A stretch of DNA of 37,674 nt from assembly GCA_021160575.1 (NCBI GenBank), contig JAGHCH010000061.1, positions 1 to 37,674 of the forward strand. Reading direction: 5' to 3'. The notes beneath the pieces are model-generated. The model did not search any database and was not told where the DNA came from. It saw nothing but the letters and a program-made list of their open reading frames with translations. Both the position numbers and the translations under genes were made by a program. How positions within the stretch are numbered: position 1 is the first letter of the stretch; every line of letters begins with the position of its first letter. Origin of the DNA: Thermoproteota archaeon (GTDB lineage: Archaea > Thermoproteota > Methanomethylicia > Methanomethylicales > JAGHCH01). Positions 9,224 through 30,536 of the stretch are shown in pieces.

Positions 9224-9271
9224 GAATAGCCTTATACAGGTGTTAGCAATTAACTGGAAAGTCTCAGCAGG

Positions 9272-10892: not shown

Positions 10893-10949
10893 CTAAGCTC
10901 GCCTCTAATGGATTACTGCCAGAAAGGCGTTTTAAAGAGGGAAGATATC

Positions 10950-12281: not shown

Positions 12282-12282
12282 A

Positions 12283-13059: not shown

Positions 13060-13099
13060 AGTCATGGTTAAAAGTAGGGGAAGGAGGGAAAGATCGAAA

Positions 13100-14794
13100 A
13101 TGAGTGCTCGAGGCCCTGAATATTACACAGACAGGGAGAAGATGTTCCTCTTCGCGCTGAGGAGGAAGTTCAAGGAGAAGCCTGAAGAGCGCTACACCAA
13201 GTTCTACATCTATGGAGGCTGGCAGCAGTCAAAGCGCAAGCGCGAGTTCGTCGAGTGGGCTAAGAAGTTGGAGAAGGAGAGAGGCATACCCTTCTACAAC
13301 CCAGACCTACACCTAGGAGGTATCCCCGTAGGTCAAAGAGTCCTCATGAGCTACCAGCTCTCAGGCACCGACATCTTCTGCGACTGTGACGACCTCCACT
13401 TCTGCAATAACGCCGCCATGATGCAGATGTGGTGGGACATCCGCAGAACAGTCATTGTAGGGCTAGACATGGCTCATACCATCCTAGAGAAGAGGCTGGG
13501 CAAGGAGGTCACCCCTGAGACAATCAACCACTACTTAGAAGTTCTGAACCACGCTCTGCCTGGTGCAGCTGTAGTGCAAGAGCACATGGTTGAGATTCAC
13601 CCCGCCATAGTAGCCGACAGCTATGTGAAGGTCTTCACTGGAGACGACGAGCTGGCCGACGAGATTGATGATAGATTCCTCATTGATATCAACAAGGAGT
13701 TCCCGCCAGAGCATGCTGAGCAGCTCAAGAAGGCTATCGGCAAGAGGCTCTATCAAGTCCTTAGAATGCCCACCATCGTAGCCATGACCTGCGATGGAGG
13801 CACAATGTACAGATGGGCTGCTATGCAAATCTCGATGTCAATGATCAACTCCTACAAGCTGATGGCTGGAGAGTCAGCCATCGCAGAGTTCGCCTACGCT
13901 GCCAAGCACGCTGAGGTCATTGTTATGGGCACGCCCATGCCCTGGAGAAGAATTAGATCACCCAATGAGCCTGGAGGCATACCTCTAGGCTACATCGCCG
14001 ACATCTGCCAAGCTTCAAGGGTGCGCCCAGACGACCCAACATGGGTTGCCCTAGAAGTCATCTCAATGGCCGCCGTGCTCTACGACCAGTTCTGGTTCGG
14101 CAGCTACATGAGCGGAGGCGTAGGCTTCACCCAGTACGCCACCGCAACCTACACTGACAACATCCTAGACGACTACTGCTACTACGGAGCCGACTACGTC
14201 CAGAAGAAGTATGGAGGCTTCGCCAAGGCTAAGCCAAGCTTCGACGTCATCAAGGATGTAGCCACCGAGGTCACCCTCTACGGCCTAGAGCAGTACGAGC
14301 TTTATCCATCGCTGATGGAGACCCACTTCGGAGGCAGCCAGAGAGCCGCCGTAGTCGCAGCTGGCGCCGGAGTCTCCGTATCTCTAGCTACTGGCCACGC
14401 TACCGCCGGAGTGAATGGCTGGTATCTGAGCCAGCTCCTCCACAAGGAATCCATGGGCAGACTGGGCTTCTACGGCTACGACTGCCAGGACCAGTGCGGT
14501 TCAGCTAACAGCTTCAGCTGGAGAAGCGACGAGGGCCTGATGTTCGACCTCAGAGGCGTCAACTACCCGAACTACGCCATGAACGTAGGACACCAGTCCG
14601 CCTACGGAGGCATCGTCTCAGCGGCTCACGGCGCAAGAGGCGACGCTTGGTGTGTCAACCCGCTAATCAAGGTGGCCTTCGCCGACAAGAACCTCAAGTT
14701 CGACTTCACCAGGCCGCGCTACTGCTTCGGCAAGGGCGCTATCAGGGAGTTCCTACCAGCAGGGCTGCTAGATCCGATCATCCCGCCGCACTAA
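13100..14794 (+). CDS. mcrA: Methyl-coenzyme M reductase alpha subunit
   Basis: GAAVVQEHM (F430 axial Gln), [43 protein letters not shown] and [12 protein letters not shown]. Start ATG 13100 after GGAGG. Confidence 0.98.
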
Positions 14795-14836: not shown

Positions 14837-15469
14837 ATGAACTCAAATCCAGCAATTGACGGTCTCAGACGCATTTTAAGGATAGTTAAAGATCTAGCTA
14901 GCCTGGCCTCTTCCTCTAATTTCAGAGAGGAGGCATCAAGGAGGTACCCTGAGTTTCCCAGCATCGCAGCTCACATCGCGGAGCAGTTTGCTGAAGAATG
15001 CGTCCTTGAAGCCGTACCCCGCATCGAGAGGCAACTGGAGATTGTAGAGAAGTACATGCCTCCTGTGAGGCCAGCTCTGGATCCCATCGCTGGCCTAGAA
15101 CTCGGCATCTATTCAAGGCTCTTTAGCGATCGTGAGATAGGTTTCTTCATGGGTTATCCCGGCTGCTGCGTAGAGAAGTTCGCCAGCGAGCTTCAGATAG
15201 GCTTCACTAAGCAGCACGTGGGGGAACTCGCCGAAGTGCTGAGTGAAAACCAAGTGCTAGTTATTACAGCTGGTTTCATCCCATGCAGCCTAAAGTGTGT
15301 CAAAGCTCGAGAGAAAGGTCTACTGGCGGTTGTTAGCAAAGAGGAGGTATCCCGACTCGAAGAGCTGGAGAAAGAGCTCTATCATGAGCTACCCCACTTC
15401 CACTACGAGTACATGGAGCATTACTACGAATACCTCAGGAAAACCTCGCCTCCACCAACCATAATCTAA
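14837..15469 (+). CDS. DUF483-like protein
   Basis: QLEIVEKYMPPVRPALDP, EIG..MGYPGCCVEKF, GFIPCSLKC and LPHFH..Y. Confidence 0.75.
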   Translation: MNSNPAIDGLRRILRIVKDLASLASSSNFREEASRRYPEFPSIAAHIAEQFAEECVLEAVPRIERQLEIVEKYMPPVRPALDPIAGLELGIYSRLFSDREIGFFMGYPGCCVEKFASELQIGFTKQHVGELAEVLSENQVLVITAGFIPCSLKCVKAREKGLLAVVSKEEVSRLEELEKELYHELPHFHYEYMEHYYEYLRKTSPPPTII

Positions 15470-15492
15470 GCATAGCGACCTCCGCTCTTTTC

Positions 15493-15910
15493 TCAATGCT
15501 TAAACCTCTGAAAAACCTTCTTCAGCCTGTCCACTCCGCGCTTTATCTGATAGTCCCAGTAAACCATGTGGATATGCCAAAGACCTTCGGCAAGGAGTGT
15601 GCTTCAAGTCCATCAAAAACAGCTATGTCCCCAGCCTCTCTAAGCTGCAGCTTTTCCTTTCTCTACTGATATCTGCTACATAATGGGCGAACTCGCGGCT
15701 ATGATAGTTTGAGAAAGATCTCTCGGGCGTACGCGTATTGCCTTCCCTCATCTGCTGTAGAAGGCTGGGCAGCTCAGGCGCACATGCTCTGGAAGGTTCT
15801 TGAAAGGCTCATTACTTATAATGAGCTTAGACCCCAGCACCCTGCGTCCTTAGCTGGTCAAGTCAAATACTCTTGAGCACGTTCCTCACTGAACAGCTGA
15901 TTTTCATGAG
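15493..15910 (-). pseudogene. Probable eroded gene of unknown family
   Basis: Hand translation gives protein-like segments in changing frames (REFAHYVADISR / KEKLQLREAGDIAVFDGLEA / TLLAEGLWHIHMVYWDYQIKRGVDRLKKVFQRFKH*) in the only ~0.5 kb gap of the window. Confidence 0.4.
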
Positions 15911-16000
15911 CAAACCCTACAGAGCGATACTTTTTTAAAAAGCTGGAATCGATCTCCAGGCCTTTTCTGAATATCATCCGCAATATGTTTCAATGTATAA

Positions 16001-17032
16001 CTATAGGGGCGTTTTAGTAGTCAAATTTACAGCGATCTCCGCTATACCTGCCGAGTATTCGGATACACGCCTTATACTTTCAAGTATCATCCTCAAGGCT
16101 GCTACTTCTCGTGCGTTAAACTTTCCTTTTTCGAGGATTTCAGCCACTAAGCGCTCTTCCCTCATTCTAACCTTTTCTCTAGCCTTAATCGCTTGGTCAG
16201 CTCTAGCGACGTCCCTACCAATAACCGCATCAACCGAGTACTTTAACGCTTCCAATGCATTGTTCACATAGTCCTCCAGCTCTTCCAATAGATTCTCACT
16301 AACTGGTCTACGGATGATCTCCAGTAAGCTCTTACATACAACTACTGCATGATCTGCTACTCTCTCTAAGTGCCTAATCACAAGTCTAAACTCTAAACAA
16401 TCTCTAAGCTCATGCAAGCCTATCTCATGCAGTAGCTCTGGAGAGCGTATAGCTAATGTCAACTGCCGAGTAGCAAGCATGTACAGCCTGTCCACTTCAT
16501 CATCACGATTCATAATCTCCTTCAAGAGTTCCGCGTTTCTCATCTTAAATGCTTTCAAAGCGTCTAAGTACATATGTGTAGCCAGCGAGGCCATTCTTTG
16601 AACAGTTTTTACCACTGGAAAATCCACATGATGAATAAACACTTGCAGGACAAGCTTCTCCATAGTCTCTTCAACTAACTCTACTCCAATTAATGTTCTC
16701 TTGATGATGGTTTTCACCCTCTCAACGCATCTTGGTGGAATCCCCTTGTTTAGCGATGTAACCTCGATGGTGTTGTACCCCGCAATATATGCAGCTACAA
16801 CAAGCCTAGCCAAGGAATCTGGATCATCTTCTGTTACATTGATTCTGGTTAGCTTATCTTTCAATGAAGGGGCTTTCATAGAAGGTGATATCAACAAGGA
16901 GCCATCGGGCAATTCACGGACAAGTAAGATATCCCCCGGCTTTACACCCCTCTTATTTGCCCAGTTCTTAGGCAGCGATATGATATATGTTGCTCCTCCT
17001 GTCAGTTGAACTCTGCGAATGGTCTCCTCCAT
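16001..17032 (-). CDS. phoU: Archaeal phosphate uptake regulator PhoU with N-terminal AbrB domain
   Basis: RRVQLTGGATYIISLPKNW (AbrB), DDEVDRLY, LERVADHA and ESIRRVSEY PhoU repeats; divergent from pstS. Confidence 0.92.
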   Translation of the reverse strand: MEETIRRVQLTGGATYIISLPKNWANKRGVKPGDILLVRELPDGSLLISPSMKAPSLKDKLTRINVTEDDPDSLARLVVAAYIAGYNTIEVTSLNKGIPPRCVERVKTIIKRTLIGVELVEETMEKLVLQVFIHHVDFPVVKTVQRMASLATHMYLDALKAFKMRNAELLKEIMNRDDEVDRLYMLATRQLTLAIRSPELLHEIGLHELRDCLEFRLVIRHLERVADHAVVVCKSLLEIIRRPVSENLLEELEDYVNNALEALKYSVDAVIGRDVARADQAIKAREKVRMREERLVAEILEKGKFNAREVAALRMILESIRRVSEYSAGIAEIAVNLTTKTPL

Positions 17033-17058
17033 GATATCGTCTCCATATTTTATACATG

Positions 17059-17098
17059 ATCTATATAGCCTATCTAAAATAGTGTGGCAATCTATATA
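17059..17098. promoter_or_regulatory. Repeated ATCTATATA elements in the phoU-pstS divergent promoter
   Basis: ATCTATATA at 17059 and 17090, with variant ATCTAAAAT at 17072. Confidence 0.35.
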
Positions 17099-17133
17099 AA
17101 TCCATTGTCTCCGCCTTCTCCCGGGGATAAAAC

Positions 17134-18165
17134 GTGGAACCTATCAATCAGCGAGGCTTAGGAAAAAGCGGCGTCATCCTAGCAGTGCTAGTAGTTGTTG
17201 TGCTACTGATTTCGGTCACCTACATTCTCCAGCCCAAAGCTGTAGAGATACATCTCTCCGGCTCTACCACTGTCTACCCCCTTGCTACAAAGTGGGCGGA
17301 AGAGTATATGCAAAAGAAACCCAACTATAAGATCGACGTTTCCGGAGGCGGATCTGGCAAAGGTATCAGCGATGTAGCGCAAAACCTCGTAGACATAGGA
17401 ATGTCCTCGCGGCACTTGAAGAGCGAAGAGTTCAAAAAGTATCCTTCGCTAATCCCCATCCCTATCGCTCATGACGCGGTAATGATCATCATAAATTCTA
17501 AGAATCCTGTGCTCAACACATTGCTGGAGAAGGGGATTTCAAGGGATGCTCTCATCAAAATTTACGTTGAGGGCTCTCTCAAGAGCTGGGAGTATGTTGC
17601 TAGCATTGATCTGGATGACGACGGCTACATAGACTACAATGGGACTCACGCACTTAACCCTGAAACTGGCCTCCTTGAGTACATGCCCAGCAATTACAAG
17701 CTTTCTGCAAGCTATGAGATACATCCTATCACGAGAAGCGATGCATCTGGAACCGCAGAAACCTTTGCTGAATTTCTTGGAGTAAACCAAGAAGATCTCA
17801 AGGGTATAGGCGCCTCTGGCAATCCGGGAGTTCTCCAAGCGGTAGCAAGTGATCCACTCGCAATAGGGTATGTGGGCCTTGCCTTTGCCTTCAAGGAAGG
17901 AGTATGCGCCATGCCTATCGACGCCAACAATAATGGCATTATTGAGGAACATGAACGAGTTGATAGCGAGGCTTACGTAGCCAGTCACATAGCTGACTAT
18001 CCAATCTCAAGGATCCTGTTCTTCGTAGTTAATGGTAAGCCCACTAAAGAGGTGGCCGACTTCATCCATTGGTGTCTGACGGAAGGACAGACGTATGTAA
18101 GCGATGTTGGCTACGTCTCACTCACACCAAGCGAAGTTGAGGATGCCTTAAGTCTAATCCGCTGA
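17134..18165 (+). CDS. pstS: Phosphate ABC transporter substrate-binding protein
   Basis: SGSTTVYP, GGGSGKGI, DIGMSSR, TRSDASGT and AIGYVGL. Confidence 0.93.
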   Translation: MEPINQRGLGKSGVILAVLVVVVLLISVTYILQPKAVEIHLSGSTTVYPLATKWAEEYMQKKPNYKIDVSGGGSGKGISDVAQNLVDIGMSSRHLKSEEFKKYPSLIPIPIAHDAVMIIINSKNPVLNTLLEKGISRDALIKIYVEGSLKSWEYVASIDLDDDGYIDYNGTHALNPETGLLEYMPSNYKLSASYEIHPITRSDASGTAETFAEFLGVNQEDLKGIGASGNPGVLQAVASDPLAIGYVGLAFAFKEGVCAMPIDANNNGIIEEHERVDSEAYVASHIADYPISRILFFVVNGKPTKEVADFIHWCLTEGQTYVSDVGYVSLTPSEVEDALSLIR

Positions 18166-18170
18166 GGGAG

Positions 18171-19154
18171 ATGGCAGTGTCCCTCAAAAACCGCTCCACA
18201 TTTTTTACTGATCGAGAAGGGGCTAATCCTCGCAGTTTACGCGGTAAAATTGACAAGTTGTCATCATGCTTTCTAGCAATAGCCTCAATTTCATCAATCT
18301 TCGTAGTTTCAACTATTGCTGCTCTTCTTCTGTATAACTTCATGAAATTCTGTGAACAAGGTTTTCTTCCAAGCATTCTCTCTGATGTGTGGCTCCCCAG
18401 TAAAGGAGAATATGGTCTCCTCCCATTCATAGCCGGGACACTATGGATTACCGCTGTTGCTATGACCATTTCTCTGCCACTAGGCTTTCTTACGGCAATC
18501 TTCATGGCAGAATACATTCCGCGGAAAATGCATTCTCCGATTAAGTCGCTGATCGAACTTCTAGCGGGAATTCCGTCCGTAGTGTATGGTATGTGGGGTT
18601 TAATGGTCCTAGTGCCTCTTGTGAGAGATCAACTTGCTCCTCTTATAGGAGGCAGCCTTGGCAAAGTTTTCCCACTATTTAGGGTGAATGTAAATATTGG
18701 TTTCAGCATTCTCGCAGCGGGGATTGTTCTTTCAATAATGGTGCTTCCAATAATGATCTCCACATCGGAGGAGGTTATGCGTGCAGTTCCTATGGAGTAT
18801 CGTGAAGCGGCTTTAGCTCTAGGTGCCACTAGGTGGCAAGCAACTAAAACGGTAGTCTTACGGCTGGCGTCCCCTGGTATCTTTGCTGGTATTATTCTCT
18901 CCTTCTGCCGTGCATTTGGGGAGACTATGGCCGTGCTGATGGTTGCTGGGAATGTAATAACAGTTCCTTCTTCACTGTTTGACCCTGCTTATCCGCTTAC
19001 AGCTCTCATTGCAAACCACCTTCCAGAGATGATCTCTATTCCATCCTATGCTTATGCATTGCTAACAGCTGGTTTCATACTGTTCGTAGTTACCTTTTCT
19101 TTCAATGTGATTGCTAGGTTAGTCGTCCGCAGACTGAAAAGAATGGGGCAATAG
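18171..19154 (+). CDS. pstC: Phosphate ABC transporter permease PstC
   Basis: ELLAGIPSVVYGMWG, REAALALGATRW and RAFGETMAVLMVAGN. Confidence 0.94.
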   Translation: MAVSLKNRSTFFTDREGANPRSLRGKIDKLSSCFLAIASISSIFVVSTIAALLLYNFMKFCEQGFLPSILSDVWLPSKGEYGLLPFIAGTLWITAVAMTISLPLGFLTAIFMAEYIPRKMHSPIKSLIELLAGIPSVVYGMWGLMVLVPLVRDQLAPLIGGSLGKVFPLFRVNVNIGFSILAAGIVLSIMVLPIMISTSEEVMRAVPMEYREAALALGATRWQATKTVVLRLASPGIFAGIILSFCRAFGETMAVLMVAGNVITVPSSLFDPAYPLTALIANHLPEMISIPSYAYALLTAGFILFVVTFSFNVIARLVVRRLKRMGQ

Positions 19155-19156
19155 CC

Positions 19157-19999
19157 ATGCGCAGAGCGATGATGGAAGAATTGCTGATAAAGCTTCTCAT
19201 GGCGATAGCGACCGTCGTTGTACTAGGTTTTCTTCTAGTAATTCTAGTAGATATTGCAAGAAGGGGGGTCTCTGCTCTCTCCCTGTCAATGCTTATTGAA
19301 CTGCCCAGAAATGCTGGGCGAGAAGGAGGGCTTCTCAATGCTATAGTGGGCTCCCTTTACATATCGAGTTTGGCAACATTGTTTTCAGCTTCAATTGGCG
19401 TTCCCGCCGGGCTCTACATTGCGGAATTTGAGGGTAAGTCTAGAATCGCGCGTGCAGCCAGCTTCGCAGCTGAAGTACTGTCGGGAATCCCGTCTATAGT
19501 TTTTGGAGTGTATGGATTCATCATCTTCGTAATAATGCTTAACATGGGAGTTTCATTGCTTGCTGGAGCTCTTACTCTGGCTTGCCTAGAACTACCCATA
19601 ATAATCAAGGTTACAGAGGAAACTGTAAAGCTAGTGCCCTCACATATTAAGGAAGCTGCTCTATCTCTTGGGGCTACTCGCTGGGAGGTTCTCTCCAAAG
19701 TTACTATTCGCCAAGCTGTTCCAGGCATTGCGACTGCGGTACTTCTAGCATTCGCCCGCGGAGCTGGAGAAGCAGCCCCGCTCATGTTTACTTCTGGTTA
19801 CAGCAACTTTACACCAAGCTCTCTTCTCAGCCCGGCAGCAAACCTTCCCCTAGCTGTTTACTACTTGATTATGATGCCATTTCCTGAAGCTCACATGAGG
19901 GCATACGCGGCTGCTTTCATCCTAACAATAATGGTTCTCTCCATGAATTGGTGTTCCAGGATGCTCTTTAAGAGGTGGAGTCGATATGTTGTCAAGTAA
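19157..19999 (+). CDS. pstA: Phosphate ABC transporter permease PstA
   Basis: GGLLNAIVGS, LSGIPSIVFG, EAALSLGATRW and ARGAGEAAPLMFT. Confidence 0.94.
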   Translation: MRRAMMEELLIKLLMAIATVVVLGFLLVILVDIARRGVSALSLSMLIELPRNAGREGGLLNAIVGSLYISSLATLFSASIGVPAGLYIAEFEGKSRIARAASFAAEVLSGIPSIVFGVYGFIIFVIMLNMGVSLLAGALTLACLELPIIIKVTEETVKLVPSHIKEAALSLGATRWEVLSKVTIRQAVPGIATAVLLAFARGAGEAAPLMFTSGYSNFTPSSLLSPAANLPLAVYYLIMMPFPEAHMRAYAAAFILTIMVLSMNWCSRMLFKRWSRYVVK

Positions 20000-20789
20000 G
20001 AGTCTTAAAAACTTGCAGCATTCTCGCCCCTCTGTCCAAGGTAAAATAGTTGTAGAAAACTTGAATGTCTACTTTGGGAAGCACCATGTTCTCAAAAATC
20101 TCTCCATAGCCATACCAGATCGTCAAGTGACCGCGATTATTGGTCCTTCCGGCTGCGGTAAGACAACATTCCTCCGCTCGCTCAATCGGATGATAGAGCT
20201 TGTAGACGGCGCTAAGGTAACAGGCAAGGTGTTCCTAGACGGCCTTAACATCTACTCCCCGAAAGTAGATAGCTCTGATATCAGGCGCAGAGTAGGCATG
20301 GTCTTCCAAAAACCAAATCCTCTCCCAATGAGCATATATGACAACGTAGCCTTCGGGCCAAGGATACACGGCATCAGAAACAAGAAGGTTCTTGACAAAT
20401 TGGTAGAGGAATCTCTCAAAGCTGCTGGACTTTGGGATGAAGTAAAGAATAGACTTAAAGATCCCGCCGTCTCCCTCTCTGGCGGTCAGCAGCAGCGTCT
20501 CTGCATCGCAAGGGCACTCGCAGTCAACCCAGAAGTTCTACTGATGGATGAACCCACCGCTTCTTTAGATCCCATCTCCTCAGCGAAAATAGAATCCTTA
20601 ATTCGTGAGCTAAAAAGAAAGTACACTATCATAGTTGTTACCCATAACTTGCAGCAAGCTATGCGCATCGCTGATTATGTAGTCTTCCTCTTCATGGGAG
20701 AACTGATAGAACACGGAGCAGCTGATGAAATCTTCACCTCTCCAAGAAATACTAAAACTATTGAATATCTTAGGGGGGCTTTCAGCTAA
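19986..20789 (+). CDS. pstB: Phosphate ABC transporter ATP-binding protein
   Basis: GPSGCGKTT, VGMVFQKPNP, LSGGQQQRLCIARALA and LDPIS. Confidence 0.95.
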   Translation: MLSSKSLKNLQHSRPSVQGKIVVENLNVYFGKHHVLKNLSIAIPDRQVTAIIGPSGCGKTTFLRSLNRMIELVDGAKVTGKVFLDGLNIYSPKVDSSDIRRRVGMVFQKPNPLPMSIYDNVAFGPRIHGIRNKKVLDKLVEESLKAAGLWDEVKNRLKDPAVSLSGGQQQRLCIARALAVNPEVLLMDEPTASLDPISSAKIESLIRELKRKYTIIVVTHNLQQAMRIADYVVFLFMGELIEHGAADEIFTSPRNTKTIEYLRGAFS

Positions 20790-20851
20790 GCCTATAATTT
20801 CCAGCTACGTAAGACAATAATGCCAGCTCTTTCCGTGCGCGGTGTCTCCTC

Positions 20852-22207
20852 GTGAAAATCGCGGTTGTCACTCCTGAAGTTTACACTTATGGCGCTATGC
20901 TGGTAGCTGGTTCCTTAGAGGAAGCTGGACATGAAGTTAAGCTGATCAAGGTCGCTGATCTACGATCTCCTCCGGTGGACGAGCTAAGAAACTACCCCAT
21001 GGTTTGCCTCGGCCTTTACTCCACCCTTCACATAGCTAAATTAGCTCCGCTTATACGGCAGCTTGCTAAAGCTGGCTGCTACACCGTTGTAGGGGGTCCG
21101 GCCGCTTTTGAACCTAGAGTGGTTTTCTACCATATTCCTGAAGTTGATGCAGTGGTGGTTGGTGAAGCTGAAGACTCTATAGCCGCTTTAGCCAACTTGT
21201 TCTCTAAAGCCTCTCCTAAGCCTCCTCCAAAAGACCTTGAAGGTATTCCTGGGGTATTTTTCGTGGAGGGCGATGAAGTTGCTGGCACTCCTCCTAAACC
21301 AGTAGACTTGGACAAGCGCCCTCCACCCAAGATCCCCCCAGACATCTACAGAGAGAACATTCGAGGAGCCAACGTCTACATGGAGATTCTCCGCGGCTGC
21401 CATGGCAACTGCACCTTCTGCCAAGTGCACTGCATGTTCGGGAGAGTTATCCGCTGTAGAGCTCTAGAAGACGTAGTTGCCGAGGCTAGGGAGTTCTCAA
21501 GAATGGGAGCTTCAAGAATAGCCATTAGTGGAGGCACAGTCACCTACTATAGATGCAGCGGCTATTCTTTCACCGACCTCCTCCATAGCCTCTCTTCTCT
21601 AGTCGGTCCTGACAATCTTTCAACACCTGACGTTAGAGTTGATGCAGTGGATGATGAAGTGCTTGAAGCTATAAAGAGGTACACAATAGGGTGGATTTTC
21701 TACGGCATAGAGTCTGGCAGCCAGAGAATGCTCAATAAAATGCGTAAGGGAATTACCCTCCAGCAGATCAAAAATGCTGTGGAAATGGCTAGAGAACTTG
21801 GGGTAAAGGTGGCCGGTTCCTTTATCGTCGGCTATCTAGGAGAGAGCGATGAAGACTACGAAGAGACCAAGCAGCTAGTGGAGGAGCTTTCTCTCCACGA
21901 CTGCTTTGTCAGCATAGCCGAGCCTTTGCCCAGAACCCCCTACCTTGAAGAGGTGCTCAAGTCACCCCTCTCTGAAAACCCAGTGTTCGTAAAGGATCAA
22001 GGGCTCTATGGGAGGAAGTATGGGCTTACAGTGGCTGAAGCGAGAGCCTTCGACCTCATGATAACTGGCTTCATCTCAAAGCCTAGGCTGGAGCTTCTGT
22101 CAAGAGATGTCGAGCTCTCCTTCCTTCAAGAAGCGAAGAGGCAAGGGGAAGATATACGAAAAGCAACCCTAATGCTGCGGCAAGCCCTCACTCAGCTCTC
22201 TCTATGA
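20852..22207 (+). CDS. mgmA: B12-binding radical SAM protein, MJ0865/TIGR04014-like; probable MCR glutamine C-methyltransferase
   Basis: N-terminal PEVYTYGAML.AG, LYSTLH and VGGP B12 domain; IRGANVYMEILRGCHGNCTFCQV (CxxxCxxC), RIAISGGT, PDVRVD and GIESGS. Lies 6 kb from mcrA. Confidence 0.78.
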   Translation: MKIAVVTPEVYTYGAMLVAGSLEEAGHEVKLIKVADLRSPPVDELRNYPMVCLGLYSTLHIAKLAPLIRQLAKAGCYTVVGGPAAFEPRVVFYHIPEVDAVVVGEAEDSIAALANLFSKASPKPPPKDLEGIPGVFFVEGDEVAGTPPKPVDLDKRPPPKIPPDIYRENIRGANVYMEILRGCHGNCTFCQVHCMFGRVIRCRALEDVVAEAREFSRMGASRIAISGGTVTYYRCSGYSFTDLLHSLSSLVGPDNLSTPDVRVDAVDDEVLEAIKRYTIGWIFYGIESGSQRMLNKMRKGITLQQIKNAVEMARELGVKVAGSFIVGYLGESDEDYEETKQLVEELSLHDCFVSIAEPLPRTPYLEEVLKSPLSENPVFVKDQGLYGRKYGLTVAEARAFDLMITGFISKPRLELLSRDVELSFLQEAKRQGEDIRKATLMLRQALTQLSL

Positions 22208-22991
22208 TCTGATCTACTAGTCCTAGAATCTCCCTAGTCTCCTCCACCACGTAGTCCGCGACTTCAAAAAGTTCTCTGGGCTTCTCCTCTCCATCTTGAA
22301 GCGTCAAAACCGAAATATCCGCGTGTATCATAGCTTCATAGTCGTTTAGATCGTTACCTATCATGAAAACTAAGCCATAAAAGCCCTTCAACCTCTCCAC
22401 GATCTCCGCTTTCTCATAGGGATCTGCGTTAGCAAAGGTAAAGTAGCTTGAAATGCCGAGCTTCTTAGCCAGCTTGCCCACCGAATTTCTGCAGTTCCCC
22501 GAGACCAAGAAGAAGTCAATTCCTCTCTTCTTTAAGCCGCCTATGAGCTCCACAATCCCCGGGTAAAGCTCCCCACCTAAGCCTACACAATGGGAGGGCC
22601 TTCTAATCTCACCGTCAACAATTACAGCTAATCCAGTGCCATACTTCGTTTTACCTGTGCGCAGCACCTCCAAATAAGCTGCTTTAAGTCCTTCAGCTAT
22701 TCGTCTAAAATTTTCTTCTTCCTTCAAGCTAAGGCGATAGATTTTCACAGCTTCCTCTTTCGATATTCCTACGTAATAGCTGGCAACAGCCCTTGCCTTC
22801 TCCAAGAACTCCCCAGGGTCTTTTGTAACCCTACTTAAAGGCCCCTCTAAATTCACAAGAGCTCTCTTTGCAGAGGAGACCAACTCGATAACTGAGATCT
22901 CCTTAAGTAGTTTACCACCCCAGCAGTCAACAACTACCCTATAGGGCTTGAGGATAGTCCCCGATACGTCAAAGACTATTGCTATCCTCAA
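22188..22991 (-). CDS. HAD-family soluble P-type ATPase-like protein (COG4087-like, methanogen-associated)
   Basis: AIVFDVSGT (DxSGT), LVSG, K...V..L and MIGNDLND..AM..AD; no TM segments. Confidence 0.8.
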   Translation of the reverse strand: MRIAIVFDVSGTILKPYRVVVDCWGGKLLKEISVIELVSSAKRALVNLEGPLSRVTKDPGEFLEKARAVASYYVGISKEEAVKIYRLSLKEEENFRRIAEGLKAAYLEVLRTGKTKYGTGLAVIVDGEIRRPSHCVGLGGELYPGIVELIGGLKKRGIDFFLVSGNCRNSVGKLAKKLGISSYFTFANADPYEKAEIVERLKGFYGLVFMIGNDLNDYEAMIHADISVLTLQDGEEKPRELFEVADYVVEETREILGLVDQIIERAE

Positions 22992-23006
22992 GGATGTTAC
23001 ACCGCT

Positions 23007-23324
23007 TCAGCCCACGCAACCGCTGTCGTAAATTTCTTTTTCAAGAAGCTCCTCTGCACCCTCCTCCTCCAAGCTCCTTCTAGGCTTCAACTCAACCTCC
23101 GCTTTTACTCTTTCCTCTTTCTTCCTTCTTCTCTCCATCAGCTCAAGAACTCTCTTTAGCTCCTCCTCCGAAGAGGGCTCAAGATACTCTACGCTATAGA
23201 GAAGCCCGGTAGTGTCTAGCTCAGCCCATAACCCCCCTATTTCATCTCTTACAACACTAATAACCCTACCAACGGTGCCAGTTCCCTTATACCTCACCAC
23301 ATCCCCAATTTTCACAGCTTCCAT
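23007..23324 (-). CDS. DUF2098 family protein (methanogen-associated)
   Basis: IGDVVRYKGTGTVGRV...WAELDTTGLLY..EYLE, charged linker, C-terminal GCVG. Confidence 0.8.
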   Translation of the reverse strand: MEAVKIGDVVRYKGTGTVGRVISVVRDEIGGLWAELDTTGLLYSVEYLEPSSEEELKRVLELMERRRKKEERVKAEVELKPRRSLEEEGAEELLEKEIYDSGCVG

Positions 23325-23477: not shown

Positions 23478-24458
23478 GTGGGGATGGGTTCCTTGCTACA
23501 AGAGAGCTTACAGCAAATCACCGAGGAACTTCGAAAGTTTCGAGGGCTCTCAAGGAAGTCCTGCATAGGCGACATCTTGAAGGTCTTCGGAGAAAGAGAA
23601 TTCGATGACGCTGGTTTCCTCGATATAGATGACTTCTATATAGTGGTCTCAACCGATGGGATAACCGAAGATCTGGTGAAGGCGGATCCATGGCTAGCTG
23701 GCTACTACTCCGTGCTGGTAAACGTGAACGACGTTGTTGTGAAGGGAGCTAAACCTCTAGGCTATGTCAACGTAGTTTCCTCTCCTAACAGTCAAACCCG
23801 GCTGATGATAGCCAAGGGCATCGAGGCCGCGCTTAAGAAGTATGGGCTGAAGCTCTTGAAAGGGCATACACACCCTGACACTTCTTATGAAGCTATAGAT
23901 GCCGCGGTGATAGGCGTTGCGAAGCGCATTGCAAGAAGCTCCACGGCAAAGCCAGGGGATAGCATCCTTCTTGCAGTAGACCTCGACGGCTCCTTTGGAC
24001 AGAAGGGATGGGTAAAGTGCTTCGACTCTACTCAGCATAAAAGCCCTGAAGAACTCCGGCAAATGCTCTTCACAGTAATCGACGTGGTCGAGTCCTCATT
24101 GGTCACCGCTTCAAGAGACGTCAGCGCCCCCGGAATCATCGGGAGCATTGCCATGCTCTGTGAGTCAAGCAACGTTGGTGCTTCCATCAACCTAGAAGCG
24201 GTACCAAAGCCTGAAAATACCTCTATCGTCGATTGGCTTACCGCTTATCCAGCCTTAGGTTTTATCTTCACAACGTCCAAAGCCCGAGAATGCCTCCGCC
24301 TACTCGAGAGCAAGGGTTACCACGTTTCTGTCATAGGCGAAGTCAACAATACTAAGAAAATCACCCTACAATACCGAGGAGAAAGCGAAATCTTTGCAGA
24401 TCTTAACACAGAGTCTATCTTCGGCTTCAGAAAGCCCATACACCCCTGCCTACCCTAA
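23478..24458 (+). CDS. mmp2: Methanogenesis marker protein 2 (AIR synthase/PurM-like)
   Basis: LRKFRGLSRK..IGD, DDAG, ADPWLAGYYSVLVNVND, GHTHPD, RDVSAPG and DWLTAYP. Confidence 0.82.
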   Translation: MGMGSLLQESLQQITEELRKFRGLSRKSCIGDILKVFGEREFDDAGFLDIDDFYIVVSTDGITEDLVKADPWLAGYYSVLVNVNDVVVKGAKPLGYVNVVSSPNSQTRLMIAKGIEAALKKYGLKLLKGHTHPDTSYEAIDAAVIGVAKRIARSSTAKPGDSILLAVDLDGSFGQKGWVKCFDSTQHKSPEELRQMLFTVIDVVESSLVTASRDVSAPGIIGSIAMLCESSNVGASINLEAVPKPENTSIVDWLTAYPALGFIFTTSKARECLRLLESKGYHVSVIGEVNNTKKITLQYRGESEIFADLNTESIFGFRKPIHPCLP

Positions 24459-24842
24459 GTGCATAAAGGCCGTTCTAAGCTGCTTCACGCCCCTTGTAGT
24501 CTTTAACCCGGCGATGAGTTCCTTTACTTTCTCTGATTCCCCTGAAATCACTAAAACTTCAAGGCAGCTCTTTTCATCGACATGAACGTGCATTAAGGAG
24601 TTTATGACATCTCCATATTCATGTTGAACTTCGAGAAGCTCTCCCCTCTGCCTCCTATCATAGAGGATCGTGATGGTGGCAATCACCTGTCCCCTTACAT
24701 CCTCGTACTCATGGTGATCAGCAATGAAGTTTCTGAGTGCTTGCCTGAAGAGTTCAGAACGACTGGCATATCCATACTTTTTAGCGACTTCATCGAGCTG
24801 AGAGGTTAACTCCTTTGGGAGTGAAATGCTTATAATGTTCAT
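24450..24842 (-). CDS. nikR: Nickel-responsive regulator NikR family
   Basis: RHH N-terminus (IISISLP..L...LD...GY.SRSE) and QH...MHVH.....CLE with all four canonical Ni ligands. Confidence 0.88.
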   Translation of the reverse strand: MNIISISLPKELTSQLDEVAKKYGYASRSELFRQALRNFIADHHEYEDVRGQVIATITILYDRRQRGELLEVQHEYGDVINSLMHVHVDEKSCLEVLVISGESEKVKELIAGLKTTRGVKQLRTAFMHLG

Positions 24843-24950: not shown

Positions 24951-25934
24951 ATGCGTTTAACCATTTTAGTAATACTGCTGTTGTTTCTCTTAATACCTAC
25001 AACTGGAGGAGCCCTTGAAAATAAGGTAGTGGTAGCTGTCTCCGTGCCTTCGCTATCATATATTGTAAAAAGTGTTTTAGGAGATTATGCTGAAATAGTG
25101 GTTATAGTTCCGGAAGGTGTAGATCCACATCTCATCCAGTTCTCTCCCGATCTCCTCTCCAAGGTTTCTAATGCTGAACTCCTCGTGCTGACAGGGCATC
25201 TCCCCTTTGAGCAGAAGCTCTGTCAAGAAGTTGGCCCTCAGAGGTGTCTCACACTTAAAGACTACTTAAAGGAGGGCGCTGTTCTGCTGAAACTGCCTAG
25301 TGGCGAGTTAAATCTTCACGCCTATTGGTTACATCCAAAGAATGCTCTCGCAATAGCCTCGGCATTGTGCAAGAGAATTTCCATTTTGCATCCTGAGTTG
25401 AAAGATTTCTGTGAGACCTCTCTGGCAAAGTTCGCGGATGATGTGCAACAGTTCTTGAAGAGTTCCTCCTCAATTATGAGGGAGCGTCAAATGGTCAACT
25501 GCCCTGTTCTGGTGGTCTTCCCAGCCGAAATGTACATTGCCAATGCATTCAACTTGACAGTAGCTGAAGTCTTAGTGGAAGGTGAGCTGGCCCCCTCAGC
25601 TGAGAAGTTGTCGAAGATCTCCGAGATGGTGGAGAAGGGAGAGATTCAGCTCATAGTAGCATCTGATGTGTCAATGTATACTAAAGCTGGTGAATACGCT
25701 GAAGGCTTCGCGAGAGATCATGGAGTGCCATTAGTCCGCGTTGCTGTCCTCTCTGGAGCTTTCTCTGACTACCTCGACTTGATGTACTACAATTTGGGGG
25801 TTATTACATCCTCCTACTTGAAGGGCTCATCAAAGAGTCATAGCGATCTCTCCTTAGTTCTAGTGCCTATACTCGCAGTAGTAGCATCTATTGCAGCCGC
25901 TGAAAGCTTCATCCTGTGGGGGAGAAAGCCTTGA
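24951..25934 (+). CDS. Metal ABC transporter substrate-binding protein (ZnuA/TroA cluster A-I)
   Basis: Signal peptide, PEGVDPH, NLHAYWLHPKNA and a C-terminal TM anchor; AGGAGG SD. Confidence 0.88.
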   Translation: MRLTILVILLLFLLIPTTGGALENKVVVAVSVPSLSYIVKSVLGDYAEIVVIVPEGVDPHLIQFSPDLLSKVSNAELLVLTGHLPFEQKLCQEVGPQRCLTLKDYLKEGAVLLKLPSGELNLHAYWLHPKNALAIASALCKRISILHPELKDFCETSLAKFADDVQQFLKSSSSIMRERQMVNCPVLVVFPAEMYIANAFNLTVAEVLVEGELAPSAEKLSKISEMVEKGEIQLIVASDVSMYTKAGEYAEGFARDHGVPLVRVAVLSGAFSDYLDLMYYNLGVITSSYLKGSSKSHSDLSLVLVPILAVVASIAAAESFILWGRKP

Positions 25935-26713
25935 GCTATGCCATAGAAGTTGAAAACCTCACAGTAACTCTCAACTCTACAGTTGTACTTGATAGTCTCT
26001 CCTTCAAGCTGCCGCATCCAAGCTTTCTGGCAATTATGGGCCCTAATGGTGCTGGAAAGACTACTCTGATTAGAGTTCTTCTAGGCTTTCTGAAGCCGGT
26101 GAAAGGGAAAGTTAGAGTTTTTGGAATAGATCCAGTTGAGCATCCATCTGGAGTGAGGGCTCTAGCTGGGTATCTTCCTCAAAAGGAGAGAATTTCCTTC
26201 GAGATTCCCATGTGCGTGAAGGATGTTGTGTTGATGGGTAAGCTTCTCAAGAAATCTCCTCCAAGGGTTCCCACCCGAGAGGATATTGAAGCTGCGAGAG
26301 ATGCTCTCCGCGCTGTAGGCCTCGAAGAACTCTGGAACCGCTGTTTTCGAGAACTCTCGGGAGGGCAGCAGCAGCGCGTTCTCCTCGCTAGATTGCTAGT
26401 CGCTGAGCCTAAGATAGCCTTCCTCGATGAGCCCTTTGCCGGTGTAGATGTGCAAACTCAACAAGCGTTAACAGCTCTCCTCCATAAGCTGGTGCGGGAA
26501 AGGAAGGTAACCATTGTCCTTGTAACTCACGATGTGAACCCGATTCAAGAGCACACCGACTACATCTTGTTGCTGAACAGGAAGGCGATAGCCTTCGGAC
26601 ACCCCACGGAGGTGATTACCTCGGAGAATCTCTCCAAGATGTATGGTGCTCCCATCAAGGTCATTCAGTATGGTCAATATTGCTATGCCATCACAGGTGA
26701 TGTCCATGCTTGA
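25931..26713 (+). CDS. Metal ABC transporter ATP-binding protein (ZnuC-like)
   Basis: GPNGAGKTT, GYLPQ, LSGGQQQRVLLAR and LDEPFAGVD. TTG start overlaps the upstream stop. Confidence 0.92.
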   Translation: MSYAIEVENLTVTLNSTVVLDSLSFKLPHPSFLAIMGPNGAGKTTLIRVLLGFLKPVKGKVRVFGIDPVEHPSGVRALAGYLPQKERISFEIPMCVKDVVLMGKLLKKSPPRVPTREDIEAARDALRAVGLEELWNRCFRELSGGQQQRVLLARLLVAEPKIAFLDEPFAGVDVQTQQALTALLHKLVRERKVTIVLVTHDVNPIQEHTDYILLLNRKAIAFGHPTEVITSENLSKMYGAPIKVIQYGQYCYAITGDVHA

Positions 26714-27524
26714 ACCCTTCCTAGTGAGAGCACTGGTTGGCGCTCTTTTAACCTCTATTATAGCCGCTACCAGCGGAACCTTCTCAGTTCTCCGCGGGCT
26801 CTCCTTTCTGGTCTCCGGCGTAGCACACGCAGCCTTTGGAGGAGTTGCGCTAGGAATTTTCCTCCAAGAAGTTATAGGCGTGAAGTGGTTTCACCCTCTT
26901 CTAGGAGCCTTACTCTTCGCAGCTATTGTAGCTGTTGGAGCTGGATATGCTGGTGAAGGCGGTTTCACGGCTAGGATGGAGGCAGCCATTGGAGTGATCT
27001 TCGCCTTCTCCATGAGCCTCGCCGTGCTAATCATGTTCTACCTCCCTGCAGAGAAGATCCCCCTCATCTGGGGTTTCCTCTTCGGAGACATCCTCCTCCT
27101 CACCAACGAAGACCTTTTTCTGCTAGGGGCTATGACCTCCCTAATGATAGGCTTCACCATAGTCTTCCATAGAGAGTTCACCTACATTATCTTCGACCCC
27201 GAGACGGCTGAAGCATATGGCATGCGCAGCAGAGCATACCACTACCTCCTCCTCGTCCTCTCCGCCTTAGCCATAGCGGCAGCTACTAAAGCCGTGGGCG
27301 CGATACTGGTGTACGCGGTGATAGTAATTCCAGCAGCTACATCCGCTCTGGTGGGGAGGAGTATTCCATCCATAGCCTTGAGGGTATTTCTCATAGCAAT
27401 CTGCTGCCAATACCTAGGGCTCGCAGCCTCGGCAGTCTTCCAAGCAGCTCCAAGCGCTGTAGCAGGGGTTCTAGCAGCCCTCATCTACCTCATCATCCTC
27501 CTCGCTAAGAGGAGGGGCCAGTGA
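26706..27524 (+). CDS. Metal ABC transporter permease (ZnuB-like)
   Basis: GVAHAAFGGVALG, FLFGDIL, FDPETAEAYG and VGAILV...IPAA. Confidence 0.92.
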   Translation: MLEPFLVRALVGALLTSIIAATSGTFSVLRGLSFLVSGVAHAAFGGVALGIFLQEVIGVKWFHPLLGALLFAAIVAVGAGYAGEGGFTARMEAAIGVIFAFSMSLAVLIMFYLPAEKIPLIWGFLFGDILLLTNEDLFLLGAMTSLMIGFTIVFHREFTYIIFDPETAEAYGMRSRAYHYLLLVLSALAIAAATKAVGAILVYAVIVIPAATSALVGRSIPSIALRVFLIAICCQYLGLAASAVFQAAPSAVAGVLAALIYLIILLAKRRGQ

Positions 27525-27527
27525 AAG

Positions 27528-28652
27528 GTGGGCAGCATCCAAGTAGCTATAGCAAGGGTAGAGCGCAGCGATGTCTTCTTAGCTGTTAGACGGGCAGTTA
27601 ACCTCGTAGGAGGTCTTCAACTAGGCGAAGGTGATTTATTAATAATCAAGCCTAACATGCTCAACGCGAGAACAGCCCTCGAAGGCGTAACTTCAGATCC
27701 CAGAATTGTTGCCTCTCTCGTGAAGCTCGCTAGAGAGCGTGGAGCTAGGGTGGTGGTGGGCGATTCAAGCGGCTCTTCAACGCCGCTGAGAACTAGAGAG
27801 GTCTTCAAAGCCACCGGGATGGAAGACGCCGTCAAGAATGCTGGCGGCGAGGTTGTAGACTTTGATTCGCAGCAGCCAATGCTAGTTGAGGTGGCAAGCA
27901 ATCCTCCTTTAAAAGTGGTAGTGCCTCGCCTTCTCATAGAGGCCTCTATGGTAGTAAACGTTCCAAAACTGAAAACACACGTGCAGACTATCTACACTGG
28001 GGCTATAAAGAACATAGCTATGGGATGCATCATAGGGCAGACTAAACTCCTAGTCCATAGGCTCGGCAGAAGCTGCAAAGATCTTTCAAGGCTAATTGTA
28101 GACATCTATGCCTCTATTTCAAGCAATGTGAAGCTTCACGTCATGGACGCGATAGTTGGCATGGAGGGCAATGGTCCCAATGTAGGAGATCCGGTTGAAC
28201 TCAATCTTGTTTTAGCTTCAAGAAATGCTCTTGCACTGGACATTGCCGCTACACTACTAGTCGGCTTCGACCCTAAGGAGATCCCCACCATAAGCTATGC
28301 CATGCAGCGAGGTTTAGGTCCCTCTTCTATCGAGGAAGTTGAACTGATAGGTGATGCAGTATCCATTCCGGTTAAAAGGTTCAAGAAGCCTTCTATCTTC
28401 AAGACAAACCTTCTCTCCTATCTTTCCTCTTTAGCTTATCCCGTCCTTGAATGGAGACCCTATATACGAAGACAGCAATGCGCAAACTGCGGAAGCTGTG
28501 CAGACTCTTGTCCAACTTCAGCCATAGACCTCCAAACTTCCACCATAAATTATTCCAAGTGCATCAGATGTTATGTCTGCTACGAGGTATGCCCCTCTAG
28601 GGCCATAACCTTGAAGAGGAGAATCAGCCTTCCAATATCGAGGCTCTTTTAG
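27528..28652 (+). CDS. DUF362 domain protein with C-terminal 2x[4Fe-4S] ferredoxin domain
   Basis: IKPNML, TSDP, NVPKLKTH, GAIKN, GMEGNGP; CANCGSCADSCP and CIRCYVCYEVCP. Confidence 0.88.
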   Translation: MGSIQVAIARVERSDVFLAVRRAVNLVGGLQLGEGDLLIIKPNMLNARTALEGVTSDPRIVASLVKLARERGARVVVGDSSGSSTPLRTREVFKATGMEDAVKNAGGEVVDFDSQQPMLVEVASNPPLKVVVPRLLIEASMVVNVPKLKTHVQTIYTGAIKNIAMGCIIGQTKLLVHRLGRSCKDLSRLIVDIYASISSNVKLHVMDAIVGMEGNGPNVGDPVELNLVLASRNALALDIAATLLVGFDPKEIPTISYAMQRGLGPSSIEEVELIGDAVSIPVKRFKKPSIFKTNLLSYLSSLAYPVLEWRPYIRRQQCANCGSCADSCPTSAIDLQTSTINYSKCIRCYVCYEVCPSRAITLKRRISLPISRLF

Positions 28653-28664
28653 AGGGGCAATTTC

Positions 28665-29681
28665 ATGGCACGTAAGCTCATAGTGCTCGGCGAAGATATC
28701 CCTCTCATAGGCTCCATAGCCTTTGGGCTAATAGACAGGGGCACAAATCTCATTCAAGTGAGGCCCTCCACTCAATGTCTACTCTCCTGCATCTTCTGCT
28801 CCACCGATGCTGGTCCCAACTCTAGGTGGAGGCAAGTTGAGTACTTGGTGCTGCCAGATCTTCTTGTGGATGCCTTCAAGCAGTTAGCCATCTTCAAGGG
28901 AGGTAGAAAGCTTGAGGCCCACATAGACACGGTAGGTGATCCCCTCACCTACCCCCATCTAGTGGAGCTGATCTCCCTCCTAAGAGAAGTGCCTGGAGTC
29001 GAAGTGATCTCCATGCAGACTCACGGCACTCTTCTAACCGAGAAGCTCGTAGATGATCTGGCTTCTGCTGGGTTATCTCGAGTGAATCTCTCCATAGACG
29101 CCTTAAATCCTGAGCTGGCTAAGAAGATGGCTGGAACTCAACACTATGATGTTGCCCATGCCTGCTATATCGCAAGGTACATCGCCGAAAACACCTCCAT
29201 GGACATCATTATAACTCCCCTCTGGCTCCCCAAGTTCAACGACGCAGAAATCCCAAAGCTCATCGAATTCGCCCTCGGAATAGGTGCTGGAAAGCAGGTT
29301 CCCGCGCTGGGCATCCAGAAGTATGAGGTACATAAGCATGGGCGAAAGGTGAGGGGGGTTAAGCCTCAAACATGGTATCAGTTCTATCAGGAGCTACGAC
29401 TGCTGGAAAAGCGGTTTAAGACAAAGCTTGTTCTATCTCCAAGCGACTTTGGGATGTTCAAGTGTCAGCCTCTCCCTAAGCCCTACCGCAGAGGGGAGGT
29501 GCTTTCAGTCAAGGTAGTGGAATTGGGCTGGCTTCGAGGAGAAGTGCTGGCAGTTCCCCCGCGAAGAGATAGGGTGTTCACCATAGTTGGCATAGACAAT
29601 CCAGAACTGCTGCTGGGTCAGAGAATAAAGGCTGTAGTCATAGGCAACAAGGACAACATCTACATCGCTAAGCCAGCTTAG
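28665..29681 (+). CDS. Archaeal radical SAM protein with C-terminal TRAM-like domain (COG2100-like)
   Basis: IPLIGSIAFGLIDRGTNLIQVRP, CLLSCIFCSTD and EAHID.VGDP. Confidence 0.85.
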   Translation: MARKLIVLGEDIPLIGSIAFGLIDRGTNLIQVRPSTQCLLSCIFCSTDAGPNSRWRQVEYLVLPDLLVDAFKQLAIFKGGRKLEAHIDTVGDPLTYPHLVELISLLREVPGVEVISMQTHGTLLTEKLVDDLASAGLSRVNLSIDALNPELAKKMAGTQHYDVAHACYIARYIAENTSMDIIITPLWLPKFNDAEIPKLIEFALGIGAGKQVPALGIQKYEVHKHGRKVRGVKPQTWYQFYQELRLLEKRFKTKLVLSPSDFGMFKCQPLPKPYRRGEVLSVKVVELGWLRGEVLAVPPRRDRVFTIVGIDNPELLLGQRIKAVVIGNKDNIYIAKPA

Positions 29682-29807
29682 CTGAAAAATGTCGATCTTT
29701 CCTTACTCAAAGCTTGTTCCTTGAATTGTGCATCTAACCTAAGCGCAGCCTACTTTAACCTCTACATCACCAGAGCTAAAAACACTCTCTTCTCCGGAGG
29801 GCTGCAC

Positions 29808-30536
29808 GTGATACCCAATAAGCTCAAAATACTGCTATCCGGTGTGCCTGGCTTCTCCTCTCGTGGCTTCTTCGGCTGGTGCACCATAGCCTTGGTAAAA
29901 GTGAACTCCGGTGAATACCTTCTCTTCGACACTGGTCACCATGGAGACCGTCTAACACTTCTCCGCGAACTCGAGAGGATGGGGCTATCGCCAGACAAGA
30001 TTTCGCATGTCGTAGTCTCCCACCTCCACTTTGACCACTGCTTGAACATGCACCTCTTCAAGAAAGCTAAAATCTACGCCTCTGAGAAGGAGCTTAACTA
30101 CGTGCTCTCAAACGAATATGAAGCAAAGGGAGACCCCTTCGTTCCCTACGCCTATGTCAAGGACCTTTCCTCAAGGATCGCTACCGTGGAGGATGGGCAA
30201 GAACTAGCTCCTCGCTGCCAGGTAGTGCTTCTTCCGGGCCATACTCCTGGCTCTCTTGGACTGTTCCTCGAAGATGTCAAAGTAATCCTCGTGGGGGACG
30301 CCATAAGGCACGCTTGGGAGCTCCTTCATGAACCCGGCATCTGCTTCCATAGTCTTCAAGAAGCCGAGAAGAGCGCCAAGAAAGCTCTGGAGATTGCTGA
30401 AGTCGTAGTTCCAGGGCACGATAGGCCCTTTAAGCTGGAGGAAGGCAGAGTTCACTACCTTGAGGACTTCCATTTAGAATTGATTTTCAGAATCCATCCA
30501 CATGATCAGCCCGTAACGGTGAAGCTCGAAAGCTAG
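29808..30536 (+). CDS. MBL-fold metallo-hydrolase
   Basis: FDTG, SHLHFDHC, PGHTPG, GDA and PGHD. Start set to GTG 29808 after GGAGG. Confidence 0.9.
   Translation: MIPNKLKILLSGVPGFSSRGFFGWCTIALVKVNSGEYLLFDTGHHGDRLTLLRELERMGLSPDKISHVVVSHLHFDHCLNMHLFKKAKIYASEKELNYVLSNEYEAKGDPFVPYAYVKDLSSRIATVEDGQELAPRCQVVLLPGHTPGSLGLFLEDVKVILVGDAIRHAWELLHEPGICFHSLQEAEKSAKKALEIAEVVVPGHDRPFKLEEGRVHYLEDFHLELIFRIHPHDQPVTVKLES

Follow-up and report, generated by a model that had tools for sequence, protein, structure and literature searches.

In the 37,674-nucleotide stretch of a Thermoproteota archaeon genome analysed here (GenBank assembly GCA_021160575.1, contig JAGHCH010000061.1; hereafter the window), an uninterrupted open reading frame (ORF) at 20852..22207 on the forward strand, stop included, encodes a protein of 451 residues belonging to the family of methyl-coenzyme M reductase (MCR) glutamine C-methyltransferases, known as QCMT or MgmA. 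The gene is found 6 kb downstream of mcrA and shares strand and contig with the MCR genes mcrBGA, and the McrA encoded there carries the glutamine that enzymes of this family methylate. From these features we estimate, with a probability of roughly 85%, that the gene encodes a functional class-B (cobalamin-dependent) radical S-adenosylmethionine (SAM) methyltransferase which would turn Gln426 of its own McrA into 2-(S)-methylglutamine. The observation itself, namely the gene, its signatures and the target glutamine, is confirmed and far beyond chance. What the sequence shows is membership of the family, complete domains and cluster motif, an unaltered target and the linkage to mcrBGA; that the gene is expressed, the enzyme active and MCR methylated is inferred from these.

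The ORF starts with GTG, and P0002, the copy of the protein in the database, agrees with it in length and start. A first-pass annotation, made from the letters of the window, had described a B12-binding plus radical SAM architecture with family signatures, and both ORF reading and Pfam searches find these as claimed. Signature stretches are TPEVYTYGAML near the N-terminus and NIRGANVYMEILRGCHGNCTFCQV. The B12-binding (Rossmann) domain covers residues 3-113 (20858..21190, forward strand; PF02310, 45.7 bits) and the radical SAM core residues 178-342 (21383..21877, forward strand; PF04055, 99.1 bits). Within the core, the CxxxCxxC motif of the [4Fe-4S] cluster (C183/C187/C190 in RGCHGNCTFCQV; 21398..21421, forward strand) occupies columns that are invariant in an alignment of 20 sequences. 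Among columns conserved at 97% or more, the window protein keeps 70 of 73 (conservation was scored on 118 other homologues, with 120 listed in the alignment). The NCBIfam equivalog model TIGR04014 (B12_SAM_MJ_0865, 'methyl-coenzyme M reductase glutamine C-methyltransferase'; curated cut-off 360 bits) matches the protein at 487.1 bits (E 4.2e-146) over model positions 1-433 of 434, which bears out the proposed membership over the full model, and the runner-up family TIGR04013 reaches 129.7 bits, under its cut-off of 251. A six-frame search of the genome returned the gene at 486.8 bits as the sole TIGR04014-level copy. The best solved structure is PDB 9ccb_A (E 4e-99, 335.8 bits, residues 2-445 aligned), which PMC11796369 describes as MgmA of M. 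marburgensis, and the proposed identity is thereby upheld against a characterised enzyme. The family boundary is sharp. Compared with the window protein, QCMT-type ORFs reach 324-436 bits at 13 full-length fetched loci, the QCMTs of two other Thermoproteota genomes (G358 and G370) 422 and 384 bits, and one truncated locus 203 bits; all non-QCMT fetched loci stay at or below 130 bits. Read from its sequence, the window protein is an ordinary, intact MgmA/QCMT that adds a member to a known family. It brings no new chemistry, because family, reaction and structure are all known from earlier publications.

The presumed substrate is encoded by mcrA (13064..14794, forward strand), an ORF of 576 residues that scores 983.8 bits on TIGR03256 against a cut-off of 767.75. 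Its true start is probably the Met at 13100, giving a form of 564 residues; the database form P0122, also of 564 residues, is 100% identical to the window McrA at 98% coverage. The codon of the target glutamine, CAG, stands in frame at 14339..14341 on the forward strand within HFGGSQRA, exactly where the first-pass annotation had placed it, and corresponds to Q426 of the ORF (414 when counted from the Met at 13100). HFGGSQRA agrees with the core of the M. thermophilus peptide which, as a passage of PMC9401015 describes, QCMT methylates in vitro. Three residues further, an Ala (A429; 14348..14350, forward strand) takes the position equivalent to Thr423 of M. acetivorans. According to passages of PMC11796369, this Gln+3 position is Gly or Ala in 84 of 85 MCRs of MgmA-encoding organisms, and roughly a third of those organisms that have Gly or Ala there are without MgmA.

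The idea that the intact Gln, or the Ala at +3, might predict methylation in this class was rejected, both being present in all 22 class McrAs that were aligned (the window and 21 relatives). All 22 share HFGGSQRAA, and the genomes of 20 of the relatives are without QCMT. A cognate McrA with the target Gln and a small +3 residue, a criterion drawn from PMC11796369, is thus necessary for membership, not sufficient. Because these 20 QCMT-less relatives have the same motif, the role of methylglutamine can be studied here through a contrast that nature provides, between this lineage with the enzyme and relatives without it.

The window McrA is 80-88% identical to the McrAs of its 21 relatives from the same order and class. 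Against named proteins it reaches 84% with a Nezhaarchaeales-labelled, 82% with a Methanosuratincola-labelled and 73% with a Korarchaeum-labelled protein, compared to 69% for the best named euryarchaeal match, Methanothermus fervidus, and the earlier description of a TACK-like mcr is therefore apt. The window McrA also has a Cys in YDCQDQCG where many methanogens carry Leu or Gln, and it reads WRRIRS where 24 of 34 aligned McrAs read WRRARG, a stretch which we take to be the methyl-arginine site of McrA. The first-pass annotation stated that McrA from anaerobic methanotrophic archaea of group ANME-1 has Val at the target site, which we could not confirm. A QCMT homologue labelled Candidatus Methanospirareceae (P0042), an ANME-1 family, is 46% identical to the window QCMT. 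The word 'valine' does not occur in the review PMC7581889.

The window is contig C60 of a 1.40-Mb genome in 131 contigs, estimated to be 91.9% complete with 0.97% contamination. Such an assembly leaves room for the suspicion that QCMT is a foreign gene, brought in by an error of binning or assembly, and that QCMT and mcr do not belong to one cell; that no other searched genome of the order has QCMT would fit this too. We consider it extremely improbable. QCMT and mcrBGA stand on one contig, and binning is therefore not at issue. The G+C content is even, at 0.44-0.56 over 8-26 kb. Contigs of two DNA runs from other studies tile 15064-23000 with 4-6 differences per 1.5-1.8 kb. In one of these runs (X6, study P4), contigs bridge from pstA/pstB into QCMT (19394-21210), across the pstB-QCMT junction, and from QCMT into the adjacent HAD hydrolase gene (21560-23000); in the other (X5, study P3), a single contig spans the entire QCMT gene (20799-22277). 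Furthermore, there are a QCMT that is 90% identical to that of the window (P0003) and a homologue, 66% identical, of the DUF483 protein encoded next to mcrA (P0268); for each, the longest source contig measures 89,692 bases, and QCMT and DUF483 are therefore probably linked likewise in a sister genome. The even G+C, the tiling and bridging contigs of other runs and this probable linkage in a sister genome make an assembly artefact at the locus unlikely.

We searched species representatives (41 genomes of the class and 401 of the phylum), for which not finding a gene is not proof of its absence. The host genome belongs to the same order as the Methanosuratincola family, but to a family of its own. 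The class sample consists of the window genome, 32 genomes of this sister family and 8 others; it includes a sister-family genome (G008) whose McrA is 99.8% identical to a protein labelled Ca. Methanosuratincola subterraneus, and a genome of another family (G040) whose McrA is 99.5% identical to a Nezhaarchaeales-labelled protein. Only the window genome, 1 of the 41, passes the TIGR04014 cut-off. In the sister family McrA is found in 31 of 32 genomes, with an identical target motif, and QCMT in none of the 32. Across the phylum 3 of 401 genomes pass, namely the window genome, G358 and G370; the last two belong to the family of the Nezhaarchaeales-like G040, in which 2 of 10 genomes are QCMT-positive. 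The patchy distribution given in the first-pass annotation is thus seen in this sample.

PMC11796369 states, in the passages concerned, that several TACK organisms encode MgmA and that Methanomethylicales are without it, and speculates that the absence of MgmA goes with methylotrophic methanogenesis. At the rank assigned by the genome tool, the window genome is an exception to the statement on Methanomethylicales, and within the literature searched we found no report of MgmA in this order. That it is the only QCMT copy in the sampled genomes of its order is of modest extra interest. The exception is useful in that MgmA stands beside a TACK-type MCR in a genome where Mtr (MtrA), Mch, MtaB, MttB and MtmB gave no match, at 91.9% completeness. 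The sole corrinoid methyl-transfer module found is on contig C107 (1-1618), where the gene of a URO-D family methyltransferase, truncated at the contig start, precedes that of a corrinoid protein. Because Mtr and Mch were not found and this methyltransferase and corrinoid protein are present, the host, a putative methanogen, seems to depend on methyl compounds and not to reduce CO2. The genome contains the YcaO-type marker 1 (499 bits), and Mmp10 (TIGR03278) gave no match there at E <= 1e-10. The QCMT gene is also found, near-identical, in metagenome runs of 12 studies labelled marine sediment or hydrothermal vent.

The QCMT tree started from the 120 homologues listed and 15 locus-encoded QCMTs. 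Sixteen named proteins were kept, others were added if less than 72% identical to those kept, and near-duplicates were dropped, which left 38 ingroup and 8 paralogue outgroup rows (46 in total). The tree was computed with IQ-TREE under LG+C20+F+G4 on 458 columns. A branch of 2.85 changes per column with support 100/100 splits the QCMT ingroup from 7 of the 8 outgroup rows, and the window protein lies inside the ingroup, at that distance from the nearest paralogues, in agreement with the proposed placement in the QCMT clade. The window protein pairs with P0003 (100/100), and the pair stands in a 95/98 clade with P0004, P0008 and two Nezhaarchaeales-labelled proteins; P0008 is identical to the protein of the Methanodesulfokora washburnensis (Korarchaeia) locus L022. 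Support is also found for Hadarchaeales with Bathyarchaeota BA2, for a Helarchaeota pair, for Methanobacteriales, and for a large group of Methanomicrobiales, Methanotrichales, Methanococcales and Methanolliviera. The tree does not settle the order of the clades, and support at the ingroup root is 53/80.

Two simple histories were tried and rejected. A recent transfer from a euryarchaeal methanogen does not agree with the position of the window protein in a Thermoproteota clade. Simple vertical descent within the class is rejected by an approximately unbiased (AU) test, in which grouping the window lineage with Nezhaarchaeales to the exclusion of Korarchaeia costs 88.7 units of log-likelihood (p-AU 2.4e-14); the group for this test was named after the tree had been seen. 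Between the QCMTs of Korarchaeia and those of Nezhaarchaeales, identity is 68-73%. The history of QCMT inside Thermoproteota, as read from this tree, involves either lateral transfer or very uneven rates, and the data leave undecided whether an ancestral gene was lost in the sister family or the gene was gained laterally. The first-pass annotation had suggested that methylation of this glutamine bears on how old the modification is. Methylation remains the expected outcome here, but its bearing on age is little: the QCMT gene does not date the modification, because the deep nodes of the QCMT tree are weak and the TACK clade conflicts with taxonomy.

If the enzyme works as its characterised relatives do, the reduced [4Fe-4S] cluster on C183/C187/C190 would cleave one SAM to give a 5'-deoxyadenosyl radical, and this radical would take the C-alpha hydrogen of the glutamine in a still unfolded, extended segment of McrA. 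Methylcobalamin on the N-terminal Rossmann domain would give its methyl group to the C-alpha radical, and a second SAM would re-methylate cob(I)alamin, so that 5'-deoxyadenosine and S-adenosylhomocysteine (SAH) would form at about 1:1. This scheme is modelled on passages of three papers. PMC9401015 describes QCMT with base-off cobalamin and one [4Fe-4S] cluster, two SAM used per turnover, methyl transfer via methylcobalamin, and 5'-deoxyadenosine and SAH formed at about 1:1. In PMC13469106, abstraction of the C-alpha hydrogen atom and methyl transfer are separate steps. PMC11796369 takes the wide cleft of the M. marburgensis enzyme (MmMgmA) to suggest an unfolded, extended McrA peptide as substrate, and reports that expression of MmMgmA in M. 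acetivorans led to methylation of about 95% of McrA Gln420 and that a peptide was methylated in vitro.

A number of points weigh against methylation of Gln426 by this enzyme. The window protein departs from near-universal residues at S202C, P329L and L364Y, as does P0003; ten comparator members of the family depart at 0-5 of the same set of highly conserved columns. Its branch is long (0.63), and its identity to clade mates is only 48-51%. When the tree is rooted on the outgroup, the smallest clade comprising the three characterised lineages does not clearly include the TACK clade, the nodes involved being weak. QCMT is dispensable for this type of MCR, because the sister family does without it though the target motif is identical. 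Finally, in the contigs of two RNA-library runs (a type of library that can hold DNA) mcrBGA is covered at 95-99% likeness, and QCMT is touched only by one contig of 287 bases (22070-22356), which reaches into the convergent HAD hydrolase gene as well, and by one bin (21382-21788) where depth is about 1. As to expression of QCMT, these contigs are neither for nor against it and settle nothing.

The long branch, the low identity to clade mates and the three substitutions at near-invariant positions would also be expected if a QCMT-family enzyme had drifted to another target, be it a different residue of McrA, a different MCR subunit or some other protein, and left Gln426 unmodified; according to a passage of PMC13469106, QCMT is versatile in vitro and alkylates other residue types. 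However, the canonical motif and the Ala at +3 are intact, the score lies well over the equivalog cut-off along the full length, and mcrBGA is linked to it. The neighbours of QCMT, pstB and the HAD hydrolase gene, offer no second candidate for a substrate. Such a drift is therefore very unlikely in our view. The gene might instead be a relic, silent or in decay and heading for the loss that the sister family has completed, with MCR unmodified. Its absence from all 32 sister-family genomes, the near absence of RNA-library contigs over QCMT and the phoU-pstSCAB block inserted between QCMT and mcr could be taken in this sense, but the frame of 451 residues is open with 70 of 73 highly conserved columns kept, P0003 is full length as well, near-identical copies recur across the 12 studies, and the DNA contigs of the two other runs show 4-6 differences per 1.5-1.8 kb, which is the pattern expected under purifying selection. 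We give little probability to a relic, and a functional enzyme acting on Gln426 remains our preferred interpretation.

The gene directly 3' of mcrA (14837-15469, forward strand; PF04467, 108.4 bits) encodes the DUF483 protein of 210 residues. Of the 31 sister-family genomes that possess both genes, 27 have DUF483 3' of mcrA, within about 600 bases and on the same strand. A DUF483 homologue about 41% identical to the window protein adjoins QCMT in G358 and G370 (tblastn; L020 3374-3976 and L021 480-1088 on the reverse strand). The named proteins among 103 DUF483 homologues all belong to lineages that encode MCR and are for the most part thermophilic (Methanomethylicia, Nezhaarchaeales, Bathyarchaeota, Methanocaldococcus, Methanotorris, Methanothermococcus, Methanothermobacter and Methanothermus), and among 14 control genomes DUF483 was found in M. 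jannaschii only. Residues C110, C111, H127, C154, H187 and H189 are invariant in eight aligned sequences. An AlphaFold2 model has a pLDDT (predicted local distance difference test) of 90.3; Foldseek gave no match of the model to the PDB at E <= 0.001, and the best hit of VIA-align against 48,161 chains had Z 3.4, with no fold assignment. Among the literature matches listed for DUF483, none dealt with methanogens or MCR by title and abstract. The DUF483 product is a candidate for an uncharacterised MCR-associated metalloprotein, and we conjecture a role in the maturation or assembly of MCR.

These observations allow a wider and quite tentative proposal, which we regard as possible rather than probable. 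QCMT might be part of a maturation kit that travels with the TACK-type MCR, with a single loss at the base of the Methanosuratincola/Methanomethylicus family, and be kept, within the order, in the family of the window genome alone; DUF483 would be a further, so far unrecognised MCR-associated metalloprotein. If this were true, there would be sister lineages with near-identical McrA target segments, one with the methylase and one without it, offering a clean comparison on the role of 2-methylglutamine, and a methylase-positive archaeon without Mtr and Mch would run counter to the suggestion that methyl-based methanogenesis goes with a missing MgmA.

The remaining genes of the window surround this locus. 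The operon mcrB-mcrG-mcrA (10908-14794) contains mcrB (10908-12281, forward strand; TIGR03257, 624.7 bits) and mcrG (12283-13059, forward strand; TIGR03259, 380.5 bits), and neither mcrC nor mcrD lies between these genes or next to them. An SsuA-type ATP-binding cassette (ABC) transporter (8162-10815, forward strand), composed of binding protein, permease and ATPase and similar to the sulfonate-type SsuA/TauC/SaoA, ends 92 bases 5' of mcrB on the same strand; our guess is that it imports a sulfonate such as coenzyme M. The block between the mcr operon and QCMT comprises phoU (16001-17032, reverse strand) and pstS, pstC, pstA and pstB (17134-20789, forward strand). After QCMT come the convergent HAD hydrolase gene (22188-22991) and a DUF2098 gene (23007-23324), both on the reverse strand, followed by the gene of an AIR-synthase-like protein (23478-24458, forward strand; 272 bits on methanogenesis marker 2, TIGR03267, under the cut-off of 365), nikR (24450-24842, reverse strand) and a ZnuA-type metal ABC transporter (24951-27524, forward strand). 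The AIR-synthase-like protein, nikR and this transporter may relate to nickel supply. Further radical SAM genes are at 28665-29681, 30533-31504 and 35234-36298, and with a DUF362/ferredoxin gene they lie within 27528-31504 and 35234-36298; none of these four is above any NCBIfam cut-off.

The characterised enzymes with which the window protein can be compared are MgmA of M. marburgensis (9CCB) and of M. harundinacea and QCMT of Methanoculleus thermophilus (PMC11796369, PMC9401015). It is like them in belonging to TIGR04014, in having a B12-binding domain, a radical SAM core and a C-terminal domain with CxxxCxxC within the class of 430-450 residues, and in the HFGGSQRA target of the cognate McrA. 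It is unlike them in that it is about 44-48% identical to Methanothermobacter- and Methanoculleus-labelled proteins and stands in a separate Thermoproteota clade, and in that its host is a TACK archaeon of an order which a passage of PMC11796369 lists as without MgmA. That paper also discusses, in the part concerned, Gln49 of MmMgmA as a possible lower ligand of cobalt; the window protein has Tyr at this position, and the column is variable in the family (Q, H, Y, T).

Mmp10 (TIGR03278), the MCR arginine C-methyltransferase, is likewise a radical SAM enzyme that uses cobalamin and adds a methyl group to an sp3 carbon of McrA, but it is of a different family and a different architecture. The nearest paralogues, TIGR04013 (MJ_1487-type), share the two-domain architecture of the window QCMT and have no assigned function; two copies are in the window genome (contigs C39 and C4), all 40 relatives have them, and these paralogues score at most 165 bits on TIGR04014. 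The QCMTs of Methanodesulfokora washburnensis and Nezhaarchaeales are the nearest clade in the tree (95/98), and their hosts likewise have TACK-type MCR. In G358 the QCMT gene is 2.9 kb downstream of mcrA, compared to 6 kb in the window, whereas the M. washburnensis QCMT has no mcr gene within 10 kb.

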